A stretch of DNA of 64,000 bases from the IMG/VR virus record IMGVR_UViG_3300042197_004918, positions 1 to 64,000 of that record; one strand, given 5' to 3'. Source of the stretch: a virus. A program made the position numbers and the translations under genes. The number at the start of each line of letters is the position of its first letter. Position 1 is the stretch's first letter. Of the stretch, positions 30,548 through 42,510 are shown piece after piece. The notes beneath the pieces are model-generated. The model saw only the letters and a program-made list of their open reading frames with translations, did no database searches and was not told the origin of the DNA.

Positions 30548-31339
30548 ATGGAAGTTCCTCCACGAAATTCGGAAGCACCGTTTGATTCATCTAAAGTCTA
30601 TTTGAGACAGATTTCAAAGAGTGTAGCCAAAGACATAATTGTAAAGAATCACTACACCCACAAGTGGAGTCTATGTCAGGTGGCGTATGGAGTATTCTAC
30701 AAGACTAATGAATGTAGCGAACACTTTACCGGAACCGAAGATAAGTTGATAGGATGTTTAATATACGGCCAGCCAGTCGGAAGAAGTGCAGCAGCGTCAC
30801 TATCGGATTCTTTACGGATAGATGAAGTTTTTGAACTAACCAGACTTTTCATTCACGACGGTTTTGGACGGAATATAGAAAGTTATAGCATAGTCCAATC
30901 GTTCAAACTCCTCAACCGAGAGTTCCCTAAAATAAAGGCGGTGTTAAGTTACGCAGACGGAGAACAAGGCCATGTCGGAGTGATATACCAAGCAACCGGG
31001 TTTCTGTATCAAGGAAACTCGTCCCTCGCCTTGATGCCCAATTATAGTTTAAGTTTGAAGGGGCCACCAAACTATGAATGGATGCATAGTAGGTCGGTTA
31101 CGTCAAGATGGGGAAGTTGTAATATAGACCACTTAAAGCGATGTATAGGAAAGACCTTTTATAGAAAGAAGGAATCGACAAAACATAGGTATGTGATTTT
31201 TATAGGTTCTCGTGTGGAGAAGAAGAAACTCACAAAATCTCTTAAACATCCGATATTACCGTATCCCAAGTCTTGTCACCATGTTGATGAAATAGAAGAA
31301 ATTGTAGTGGAAAATAATGCAACCGAAACCTTTTTTTAA
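30548..31339 (+). CDS. mom: Mom-family DNA adenine-modifying GNAT enzyme
   Basis: IVKNHY, ELTRLF, RNIES, VLSYAD..QGHVGVIYQATGFLYQG, KHRY. Confidence 0.8.
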   Translation: MEVPPRNSEAPFDSSKVYLRQISKSVAKDIIVKNHYTHKWSLCQVAYGVFYKTNECSEHFTGTEDKLIGCLIYGQPVGRSAAASLSDSLRIDEVFELTRLFIHDGFGRNIESYSIVQSFKLLNREFPKIKAVLSYADGEQGHVGVIYQATGFLYQGNSSLALMPNYSLSLKGPPNYEWMHSRSVTSRWGSCNIDHLKRCIGKTFYRKKESTKHRYVIFIGSRVEKKKLTKSLKHPILPYPKSCHHVDEIEEIVVENNATETFF

Positions 31340-31354
31340 AGATATTTATAGGAT

Positions 31355-32425
31355 ATGAAGCTCAAACTGTCCGAATTGAAGAAAATTATCCGTGAAAATG
31401 TTGATGCAGTTATCCGTGAAAAATTCGGCCACGGAGAAGTAGACCCGTCCGGACAAGGTGAATCGGCGGTCAATGCTTTGTTCGAGAAGGGAAGCATGGT
31501 TGTTGCTTTCTCTGAAATAGAAGACTTGTCGTATGAGATGGAAAAGGACGTAGACCGTGCCGAAGCTCTGTATGAGAAACTTGTGGAGTATGCACGTGAG
31601 GCCGCTCCGGAGTTGGGATATTTGCCCGACGCTCGTGGAGAGTTCTTTGTAAAACGGAATACCACACAGAAGTTTGCGAAAGATTATCCCCAGTTAAAGA
31701 AACCTGCTGTTAAGGCTGACGACGACGGATTTGTTGGAAACACAGAACTTCAAGAATCGAAACTTTCCATCTTGAAGAAGATTATAAAAGAGGCTATTGA
31801 AGAAGTAAAGTCTGAGGATTCTAAGTCAATCGAAGAGTCGATGAAAGCGGTTCTTAGAATGCTTAAAGAACAGAATAAGTCGCTGTCTTTACGTAAGAAC
31901 CGTGCTGGAAACTTTGAAGTCGGCGGATGTTCCCCTACACAAATCGAAATCCGTCCAATGATGAAAGACGCATTTGATGTCATTTTCATCAAAAATGGAA
32001 CCGACCGTGAGAAGAAGATGAACCTCGATTTAAAGGGTGTAAAGGATTATTTGAAGGAGAAGTTGGACGACAAGAAATTGGATTACAAACAAACCGCCTT
32101 CAACAAAGCGGCTTCTCAGGTTGAAGATGAAACCAAAAAGACAACCGGTTTGCCCGACAGCAAGATTAAAGATTTGAAAAAAGTCGGTGACACGAAGAAA
32201 GACGACCTCGATTTCAACAAGAAAGAAGTTGAAAAAGAAGCCGACCTTCCCGACCAGCCCCTCGCTGAAGTTGGAGAAGTGAAGGGTCAATCATCCCACG
32301 ACAGCGACTCTGGTAAAGCAAAGTATACGTTTCCAAAACAAGATAAAGAAGAGAAAAAGCACGTTTTGAAGGGTGGCAAGGGTAAAGAGTTGAAACTGCC
32401 AGAGAAGAAGATAAAAAAGAAGTGA
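31355..32425 (+). CDS. highly charged hypothetical protein, putative internal head protein
   Basis: TATTTATA at 31343; two copies of L..LKKII[RK]E. Confidence 0.7.
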   Translation: MKLKLSELKKIIRENVDAVIREKFGHGEVDPSGQGESAVNALFEKGSMVVAFSEIEDLSYEMEKDVDRAEALYEKLVEYAREAAPELGYLPDARGEFFVKRNTTQKFAKDYPQLKKPAVKADDDGFVGNTELQESKLSILKKIIKEAIEEVKSEDSKSIEESMKAVLRMLKEQNKSLSLRKNRAGNFEVGGCSPTQIEIRPMMKDAFDVIFIKNGTDREKKMNLDLKGVKDYLKEKLDDKKLDYKQTAFNKAASQVEDETKKTTGLPDSKIKDLKKVGDTKKDDLDFNKKEVEKEADLPDQPLAEVGEVKGQSSHDSDSGKAKYTFPKQDKEEKKHVLKGGKGKELKLPEKKIKKK

Positions 32426-40425: not shown

Positions 40426-41189
40426 AAGAGAATCTATACAATAATGGAGACACGTTTTTTGACATAGAGAAGTCTAAACTGCAAATCCAACTTATACAAT
40501 GCACTACGCCTGTGCAAAATAAGCTATTTCGTGATACCATAAATAAACACCACTCGTATGTAAAATACAAAGATTCTCCGACGAGGAATCTTAGATACTT
40601 GGTCTACGAAGGCGTGAGTGGAAATCACGTAGGAGCCGTGGGATTGAGCAGTGCCACAATTGCGGTGGCTTGCCGAGATGCATTTGTTGGGTGGAACAAT
40701 GAAACTAAGATGCGTCACCTAAACGAAGTCGCTAACAATAGTAGATTTTGCTTAATAAGAGACAACATCACCATAAAGAATGTGGCAAGTATGTGTCTTC
40801 GCCAGCTGCGCGAAGTTGGTGCAGTGGACTGGAAGAATCGTTACAACGACAGATTAATACTGCTTGAGACGTTTGTTCAGCCCGACAGAGATGTTTCATT
40901 AGACGGACACGTATCGAGAAACGGCAGTTGTTATAGAAGTGATAACTGGGTCGAGGTCGGAATGACATCTGGTGCAAGTATCCAAAAGTCTCCGTTATTG
41001 TTATGGGCGAAGGAGAAGGGAGAAAGAGGAAGGCTTGCCAGAGAAAACAAAGAGGAGTGTCTAAAGATATATGGAAAGTATCTTGGAGAACACAATGGTA
41101 GCGGATATAAAGTAACTGAAAGTAAGAAAAAAATTGTGTTTGTAAGACCTCTGGTCCATAATTGGAAAACCTTATTGAACCATGAGTGA
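40422..41189 (+). CDS. DUF4338 / Mom-related GNAT-like protein
   Basis: HHSY, RYLV, RDAFVGW, ANNSRF, NVAS, W..RY, LLETFV, GSCYRSDNW..VG.T.G. Confidence 0.8.
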   Translation: MKENLYNNGDTFFDIEKSKLQIQLIQCTTPVQNKLFRDTINKHHSYVKYKDSPTRNLRYLVYEGVSGNHVGAVGLSSATIAVACRDAFVGWNNETKMRHLNEVANNSRFCLIRDNITIKNVASMCLRQLREVGAVDWKNRYNDRLILLETFVQPDRDVSLDGHVSRNGSCYRSDNWVEVGMTSGASIQKSPLLLWAKEKGERGRLARENKEECLKIYGKYLGEHNGSGYKVTESKKKIVFVRPLVHNWKTLLNHE

Positions 41190-42510
41190 TTTTTTTGAAT
41201 ACGACAATCCGGAGGTAGAGTGTAAATATAGAATTTTGGTGTGGCCAAACATAACCTACTCCGAGGATTTGGAGAAGGATTCCTACGTGGTAGTGTTGTC
41301 AAACGTCATTCGTGAAGTCAACAAGATGGTTCCGGGAATATTTTGGTCTATAGTCACACCAAAAGAAGTCAAGAGTTTGAAATTCCCAAACACAGAACAA
41401 CTCATATTGGATTTTCCGACGTATCCAAATTCGATGAGGATAAATTTCGACTTCAAGAAAGTGATGAACCTTGTCGATTGGCGGAAAAACGATTACGACA
41501 TCATTTACAGCCATTTGCCAGAACACACGCTTCAACTTTCAAACCTCTTCAACAACCAGACTAATATACGTCCCAAGTTTTTGGGATACTGTCATTGGTA
41601 TGAAGTAGAGGAAAACACTGCCTACGAGAAGAACGTGTTTATGAACAACATCGCGGGAACTCTTGAAATGCAAGAGTGTGGGGTGAACTCGAACTGGCTG
41701 AAGAACCTCATTCTAAAGAAGGCTTCCAAATTCTACTCTGATTCTGTGTTGAAAGACTTGGAGAGAATAATTCAGCCTCACTATCTCGGAACGGATGTAG
41801 ATTTCGGAAACAATACGAACTTGATTCATAAATCCATTCTTTTCAACCACCGACCAAATGAGTATACGGGTTGGAATGAGTTTTTGAAATCAATGGATAA
41901 GTTATACGAAACTCGTCAAGACTTCACTGTGTATGTGACTCTTGCGGAAGTCGAACGGCCCTACATCAAGAAAGTGTGCCTCAATCGTAAAGACTACACG
42001 AATTTCTTAAAACAGATGCACGTTGGAGTTGGGTTCTTCAAAGACTACAGCGCATGGTCTATTTCCGCTACGGATGGGATGAGCCGTGGACTTCCATATC
42101 TTCTGCCTAAAAGACTTTGTTATCCCGAAATGGTTGGTGAGGATTATCCGTTGTTCTTCACAACCGACGCAGACTTTCTTTCAAAAATTGGAACCATTCT
42201 CGACGACCCTACCTTTAGAAAGACCCATACGGAAACTCTAAAATCCGTGGTTACAGACCTCTCGTGGAATAACACGGTCAAGGAGTGGTTTGGTGGGTGG
42301 AATGTCTTTGAGTTCGACAAACTCACCAAGGATACTCCTAGATACAATGATATTTTAAAATTGATAAAGACCAAAGGGTTTGTGTCAAAAGAAACCTTGA
42401 TGGATTTCCTCGGTTGGGGTGTCAATATCTCCATGTCTCCTTATAGAAATAGACTCCGAGACGAACCAAATATAACCCTCTTAAAGTCCGGTTATCAATA
42501 TAATAATTGA
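41182..42510 (+). CDS. GT-B glycosyltransferase, candidate DNA glycosyltransferase, with C-terminal winged-helix-like extension
   Basis: YDIIYSHLPEH, FNHR, WSISATDGMSRGLP, CYPE; basic helical C-terminal tail. Confidence 0.7.
   Translation: MSDFFEYDNPEVECKYRILVWPNITYSEDLEKDSYVVVLSNVIREVNKMVPGIFWSIVTPKEVKSLKFPNTEQLILDFPTYPNSMRINFDFKKVMNLVDWRKNDYDIIYSHLPEHTLQLSNLFNNQTNIRPKFLGYCHWYEVEENTAYEKNVFMNNIAGTLEMQECGVNSNWLKNLILKKASKFYSDSVLKDLERIIQPHYLGTDVDFGNNTNLIHKSILFNHRPNEYTGWNEFLKSMDKLYETRQDFTVYVTLAEVERPYIKKVCLNRKDYTNFLKQMHVGVGFFKDYSAWSISATDGMSRGLPYLLPKRLCYPEMVGEDYPLFFTTDADFLSKIGTILDDPTFRKTHTETLKSVVTDLSWNNTVKEWFGGWNVFEFDKLTKDTPRYNDILKLIKTKGFVSKETLMDFLGWGVNISMSPYRNRLRDEPNITLLKSGYQYNN

Follow-up and report, generated by a model that had tools for sequence, protein, structure and literature searches.

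We have analysed the first 64 kb (the window from here on) of a 173.8-kb phage contig, IMG/VR record IMGVR_UViG_3300042197_004918 (G000), which is ca. 49% complete. It comes from a large, uncultured phage with T4-like replication genes (PolB, the gp44 and gp62 loader subunits, a 5'-3' exonuclease and an ATP-dependent ligase), and one relative rated complete has a size of 296 kb. Our subject is a short terminal tag with a pair of aromatic residues, FF, found at one end of five proteins encoded on the plus strand between 30548 and 42510. All five had been listed in a preliminary description of this DNA, and all were located as stated there. The first is a Mom-family GNAT of 263 amino acids (aa) (30548..31339; Pfam Mom, PF25680, E 3e-43, 148 bits against a cut-off of 27) with the C-terminal tag TETFF (31322..31336). 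A DUF4338/DruA-like GNAT of 393 aa, DUF4338a (36311..37492; Pfam DruA E 6e-22), starts MSSPNDFFD at ATG 36311, the same start residue as in its close homologs, and has its tag, NDFFD, at 36323..36337. It is followed by a 134-aa protein (37476..37880) that ends SVDFFE (tag VDFFE, 37863..37877), by a second DUF4338/DruA-like GNAT of 255 aa, DUF4338b (40422..41189; Pfam DruA E 1e-25; tag DTFFD, 40449-40463, within GDTFFD at residues 9-14), and by a GT-B glycosyltransferase (GT; 41182..42510) that starts MSDFFE (tag SDFFE, 41185..41199). As also claimed, a gp62-like clamp-loader small subunit is encoded among them (39333..39821, plus strand; phrog_225, E 1e-13), and none of the glycan-cluster enzymes (42910-64567) has a terminal [DET]FF; glycan-cluster gene 54949 has a G-FF at residues 11-12.

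We scanned the 206 predicted proteins of the contig for [DET]FF within the first 14 or the last 7 positions, taking the expectation from the internal rate, and found eight matches against 1.55 expected (Poisson P 2e-4, Fisher 6e-4). The eighth, in the HNH gene 92350, stems from a wrongly called start, leaving seven genuine ones (P ~1e-3, by hand arithmetic). These are the five window proteins and two proteins encoded beyond the window, PolB (67325-69856, ending EEFFSF) and an N4/N6 DNA methyltransferase (70066-70941, ending EFFEL), the contig's only carriers. The motif was defined post hoc, and the tests that count are these two new carriers and the conservation in homologs. The replicative PolB had been predicted to be marked by such a scan, and its FF tail, which 9 distinct related contigs retain, provides the best independent test; the methyltransferase is one further DNA-modifying enzyme among the carriers. 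From position frequencies the consensus is x-x-[FY][FW], with no Gln and no fixed aliphatic residue at -3, and it matches neither the exact T4 LDFL nor the canonical Q-x-x-aliphatic-x-x-FF consensus. The motif had been described as acidic: the FF held, while the acid turned out to be common and not obligatory, as Mom homologs often have NQFF or NPFF and there are FW and YF variants. Looser patterns reach near-chance genome-wide counts in some relatives (13 seen against 10.9 expected in G007), and a broad-pattern genome scan fails to pick out the carriers in G007, G008 and G001, so that conservation is required.

Conservation was checked by alignment, 80 related loci having been fetched with DUF4338a as the query (this gene is in all 80). 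The Mom enzyme has FF or YF near its C-terminus in 118/120 homologs, the 134-aa protein keeps its tag in 118/120, and DUF4338a has [FY][FW] near its N-terminus in 58/59 distinct homologs, the sole miss being cut by a contig end; DUF4338b (10/10) and GT (6/6) are tagged in all their close homologs. In the 134-aa family F132 and F133 are 97% conserved and positions 121-130 only 12-55%, and the protein has a low-confidence tail (residues 124-134, pLDDT <50 in the AlphaFold model). Residues 1-8 of GT, which include its tag, are likewise disordered (pLDDT <50). An FF kept amid variable flanks on floppy tails is the behaviour of a short linear motif.

Aromatic residues at protein ends are common degrons, and the tag might mark proteins for degradation or packaging or, in each family, be a structural feature of its own. 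There is a ClpP-like protease gene at position 93089 of the contig, and a baseplate protein also ends S/D-FF-W/Y. However, the tails are unstructured, the tag switches ends within one family, and the carriers belong to replication or DNA-enzyme families and not to virion or regulatory proteins, all of which makes these readings very improbable in our opinion.

Beyond the window the gene order is PolB, methyltransferase, clamp and gp44 loader. The putative gp45/PCNA-like clamp is a 246-aa protein (71113-71853), and the gp44-like loader (71866-72825) was recognized with PHROGs. We take the 246-aa gene to be the clamp because gp45 and PCNA are the closest Atlas clusters that have a name (0.94), because in the relatives examined, the cultured Microcystis phage Mel-JY01 among them, it fills the PolB-clamp-loader position, and because its product models as a confident trimer. 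Modelling of clamp-peptide complexes had been suggested, and the clamp trimer with residues 100-134 of the 134-aa protein scored 0.60, well above the best control (0.02), with runs sharing at least 42% of contacts and a partner pLDDT of at least 43. The tool grades this as weak support: of the solved pairs 58/80 reached the benchmark mark, as did 2/110 mismatched ones, those at or below 0.60 being only 7 of the 80 and both mismatches. The score may also reflect memory of solved clamp-peptide complexes.

A weak pass in complex prediction would also suit a tag that binds some other hub, such as the host beta clamp, a replisome organiser, a gp32-like single-stranded DNA-binding protein or a MoxR/vWA pair encoded in the window. 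A few distant GT homologs (P0348 and P0390) end in Q-x-x-L-F, resembling the bacterial beta-clamp motif, and the vWA protein has a conserved aromatic motif of its own at the N-terminus. Against this, the tag sits at the C-terminus of PolB, where T4-family polymerases bind gp45 (PMC6212786), it is lost along with clamp divergence in one clade (G001), and the score drops to 0.00 when an unrelated protein is put in place of the clamp. We hold another hub to be improbable and binding of the tagged proteins to the phage clamp to be likely.

The few natural controls available show that the tag tracks the presence and type of the clamp. Homologs of the 134-aa protein from the chimallivirus-type phages SPLA1a and pVa-21 have no tail, and the Lak phage homolog ends QSLF. 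One jumbo-phage group has been described as having no classical clamp (PMC7824862), and we take it to include these chimallivirus-type phages. In G001, which is a single clade, the clamp is 28% identical and both PolB and DUF4338b (58% identical) are without FF; elsewhere distant DUF4338b homologs have MSFFD. Distant relatives, whose PolB is 46% identical, have DUF4338b, Mom, DUF4338a and GT, tagged with FF or FW, immediately before PolB-clamp, and in the complete G010 6 of the 12 terminal matches (4.5 expected) fall inside that 10-kb PolB-clamp block. The content of the PolB-clamp slot varies: our contig has the methyltransferase there, one clade the 134-aa gene and a further clade a second tagged Mom. 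Of the multi-enzyme modification set that had been proposed, the tagged enzymes stand and a fixed five-protein system does not. Thus, the complete G007 has tagged Mom, DUF4338a, small protein and PolB, with no GT, DUF4338b or methyltransferase homolog detected, and G010 has Mom and both DUF4338 proteins, with no GT or small protein detected. Mom and DUF4338a are the common core, and GT, DUF4338b, the methyltransferase and the 134-aa protein come and go.

The Mom enzyme matched the phage Mu Mom structure (8bv8) at E 6e-11. Mu residues R101, S114, D139 and Y149 align to its R99, S113, D137 and Y147, and the His-Tyr pair at 35-36 is likely the equivalent of H48/Y49, while the tag stands on a C-terminal extension of ca. 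22 aa past the Mu Mom match. It is predicted to be an adenine-N6 modifying enzyme, whose product, if Mu-like, would be N6-methylcarbamoyl-adenine, and DNA is very likely the substrate of both Mom and the methyltransferase. The DUF4338 family has been described as GNAT, and in cyanophage S-SCSM2R a DUF4338 protein whose gene lies amid those for the clamp and its loader has been considered Mom-like in structure (PMC10853773; PMC12801897). The neighbours of the DUF4338 genes in our contig are gp62, a dNMP kinase, a metallo-hydrolase and GT.

The glycosyltransferase has a GT4-like core (residues 13-380; AlphaFold2 pLDDT 93; Foldseek E 2e-13) and a winged helix-turn-helix (wHTH)-like C-terminal domain (residues 378-442; 42313..42507) with the order helix-strand-helix-helix-hairpin. 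This domain, with a conserved Trp and Tyr-Arg, is kept in most of the family, some tagged relatives being without it; in a few homologs it matches Pfam wHTH models (E 7e-5), which the domain of our GT does not. Its presence argues for DNA as the substrate. No Pfam family was found for GT at E<=0.1, AGT included, and no homolog at E 1e-3 among the phages of the GenBank collection, so there is no known DNA chemistry to borrow. The family is unannotated and has 384 matches among 50%-identity representatives. In its wider membership the aromatic tag can be N- or C-terminal (C-terminal in P0253 and P0255, the gene of the latter coming after gp32 on a T4-like contig). In about half of the distant homologs no tag can be recognised, and a homolog in a small integrase-bearing phage is untagged.

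The model of the 134-aa protein (AlphaFold2 pLDDT 89) appears to have a beta-tent (Yippee/Mis18/CULT-like) fold. Its best match in VIA was Mis18 Yippee (Z 8.1, root mean square deviation 4.4, 92 aligned), a Z near the usual background, and the top 20 structural rows are nearly all beta-tent proteins (Yippee/Mis18, cereblon, MsrB and RIG-I C-terminal domains). The family has many invariant Tyr and Arg; the two CxxC zinc-binding motifs were sought in the alignments, in which no Cys is conserved. A reading as NOV_C/DUF3883 (PD-(D/E)XK) nuclease, suggested by an Atlas feature (0.92), found no backing in the fold searches, with no Pfam match and with beta-tent proteins as the best structural matches of the model. 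The protein had been expected to act on DNA: its apparent fold is of a binding type, no catalytic family is evident, and it is probably, judging by the model, a base or nucleic-acid binder and not a catalyst. A Pithovirus protein shares the fold, and in Vibrio phage pVa-21 (L106:1360-2292) the homologous domain is fused to a YspA/SLOG domain.

The explanation that we favour, and consider reasonably probable, is that the terminal x-x-FF is this group's PIP-box-like clamp-docking motif and serves the replication-coupled modification of nascent DNA by exchangeable cargoes. That the motif recruits modifiers to the clamp, as first suggested in the preliminary description, is supported overall by its conservation, by PolB and the methyltransferase as carriers and by the way it tracks the clamp in the few natural controls. 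The phage's own trimeric clamp would be loaded by gp44/gp62, PolB would dock on it through the C-terminal FF, at the position where T4/RB69 gp43 binds gp45, and unrelated proteins, having gained this peptide at a flexible terminus, would travel with the clamp along new DNA. The cargoes would be the Mom GNAT (acting on N6 of adenine, as in Mu), the two DUF4338 GNATs, the GT4-like GT with its wHTH-like domain, the N4/N6 methyltransferase and the beta-tent binder. Modification would then closely trail synthesis, the likely result being that nascent phage DNA is shielded from host nucleases, and the clamp would act as a tool-belt with exchangeable modifiers. One guess for the GT acceptor is a group added by a GNAT.

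Several observations pull in the opposite direction. The 246-aa protein has no Pfam, PHROGs or PDB sequence-profile match as a clamp, its identity coming from context and language-model neighbours. The ligase had been named as a possible carrier and in the genome scan it has no terminal tag (an internal KFFK was not counted, as it sits inside the catalytic domain). In relatives there are untagged Mom paralogs alongside tagged ones, the PolB-clamp slot of G010 holds an SGNH/DUF6071-like protein with an N-terminal KFW and no DNA link, which is one of the six matches in its 10-kb block, and the DUF4338 genes beside gp45 in cyanophages and pelagiphages show no clear tag. The glycosyltransferase is nearer to small-molecule and lipid GT4 enzymes (VIA Z 26.2, root mean square deviation 3.0, 339 aligned, against GT4-type enzymes) than to T4 alpha-GT (Z 18.5); against the phage HY126 glycosyltransferase the Z is 19.8. 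Neither a hydroxymethyl-pyrimidine nor a TET pathway was seen in the ca. 49% complete contig, the TET/JBP search being silent for the controls as well, and the sole thymidylate synthase, near DHFR, keeps the dUMP-type Asn and looks canonical. A link between T4 alpha-GT and gp45 was once proposed; it is disputed and was not reproduced in a 2025 preprint (10.64898/2025.12.06.692756). Finally, the contig is strongly depleted in GTAC (observed/expected 0.03) and GATC (0.17), which is not found in G007 or G001 and in G008 is seen for GATC. This points to host-specific restriction pressure, and such avoidance suggests that protection is partial or site-specific, with no blanket protection.

Some of these facts would also fit a tag that docks on the clamp while the DUF4338 GNATs and GT modify proteins or act in fork repair, leaving Mom and the methyltransferase as the only DNA modifiers. 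GT is GT4-like and no pathway for a hydroxylated-base acceptor was seen; DUF4338 in bacterial defence fusions has been proposed to target proteins (PMC10853773); and the beta-tent domain is fused to SLOG in pVa-21 and has a weak match to a helicase domain from a phage (E 4e-3). Yet GT bears the wHTH-like domain, the S-SCSM2R DUF4338 resembles Mom in structure (PMC12801897) and four enzyme families cluster beside PolB in distant phages. Balancing this evidence, we believe a role on proteins or in repair to be unlikely, and DNA to be a somewhat likely substrate of DUF4338 and GT.

Replication-coupled modification through the clamp would be significant in that phages usually modify their bases either in the nucleotide pool or once replication is over, and fork coupling via the clamp is contested. 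Here a docking peptide is common to PolB and six proteins of five families (Mom, DUF4338 twice, GT, methyltransferase and beta-tent), so that clamp coupling can be put to a direct test with short peptides. The peptide also provides a first clue to the function of phage DUF4338, of the unannotated GT-wHTH family and of an unnamed beta-tent family, with possibly new DNA chemistry. A more ambitious and rather doubtful extension is a multi-step, clamp-tethered DNA hypermodification line, run by a widespread group of large phages, in which the Mom and DUF4338 GNATs would add acyl-derived groups to bases, a GT4-wHTH enzyme would glycosylate a new acceptor that needs no hydroxymethyl-pyrimidine pathway, and the beta-tent protein would read the modified base. 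If this were true, the FF tag would allow a DNA-acting function to be predicted from sequence for uncharacterised phage proteins, and the bases produced would be ones not yet described.

Other features of the locus and its surroundings deserve mention. The vWA-like partner (33448-35532) of a MoxR-type AAA+ ATPase (32478-33446) has a conserved N-terminal Y-S-D-[FY]-W, with the aromatic pair in 54/60 homologs and five of the six misses in cut or partial open reading frames (ORFs); this could be a further clamp-docking variant that puts a MoxR/vWA remodeller at the clamp. At its N-terminus the 5'-3' exonuclease (24272-25348) conserves L-x-S-[LM]-F, and the gp44 loader starts MSFSF (MSFF in relatives); both are possible degenerate clamp-binding peptides. 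PolB is split into two ORFs, intron or intein-like, in L165:2652-5769 and L102:8423-12876, and the second part in L165 keeps the FF tag. A short PolA-family protein (456 aa, 17968-19338), also conserved among relatives, accompanies the PolB replicase. Directly upstream of Mom, and present in 34 related loci, is a PAS-domain protein with an N-terminal hydrophobic segment (29902-30507). Within the cluster there is an untagged Apyc1-like metallo-beta-lactamase (37883-38740; anti-Pycsar family, E 3e-31), found in 4 of the 80 related loci. Downstream, a GT4-like glycosyltransferase (42910-45293) seems to be broken into two genes (184 aa and 337 aa) that small ORFs separate, and it appears as a single ORF of 496-506 aa in L101 and L102.

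Our searches of the literature found no description of this FF tag system, and it can be compared with known systems only part by part. The phage DUF4338 proteins belong to the same Pfam/PADLOC family as DruA of Druantia type I. However, they are phage-encoded amid replication genes, with no DruB-E operon or DruE helicase: DruA was the only PADLOC Dru model matched by the 8 proteins scanned, and no other Dru genes were found among the neighbours scanned. With phage Mu Mom (PMC7261163; PDB 8bv8) the enzyme at 30548 shares the GNAT fold family and the catalytic and iron-binding residues. Mu Mom is one enzyme on its own, and the alignment with its solved chain runs out before the tail, while here there is an added tag and there are companions (DUF4338, GT and methyltransferase). 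T4 alpha-glucosyltransferase and the HY126 enzyme have the GT-B fold in common with ours, which is nearer to GT4, has the C-terminal wHTH-like domain and comes without a visible hydroxymethylcytosine pathway.

The closest parallel for the tag itself are the gp45 clients of T4 and RB69, gp43, gp55 and gp33, which have a terminal LDFL, and the ligase, which binds through an internal LDFLF loop (PMC9690074, PMC6212786). Both cases have a short aromatic peptide on a flexible end, the C-terminus of PolB included, and a phage clamp with a gp44/gp62 loader. They differ in that the peptide here is x-x-FF (with FW and YF variants) and often N-terminal, the cargoes are enzymes of the DNA-modification type and not transcription factors, and the clamp is too divergent for gp45 profiles. 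The clients of PCNA provide the other parallel, among them DNMT1, which has been named as a PCNA partner (PMC9690074): an FF pair is the anchor, and DNA modification is coupled to replication via the clamp. Unlike the PIP-box, the tag described here has neither the Gln nor a fixed aliphatic residue at -3, the clamp is viral, and the modifiers are several and chemically different.

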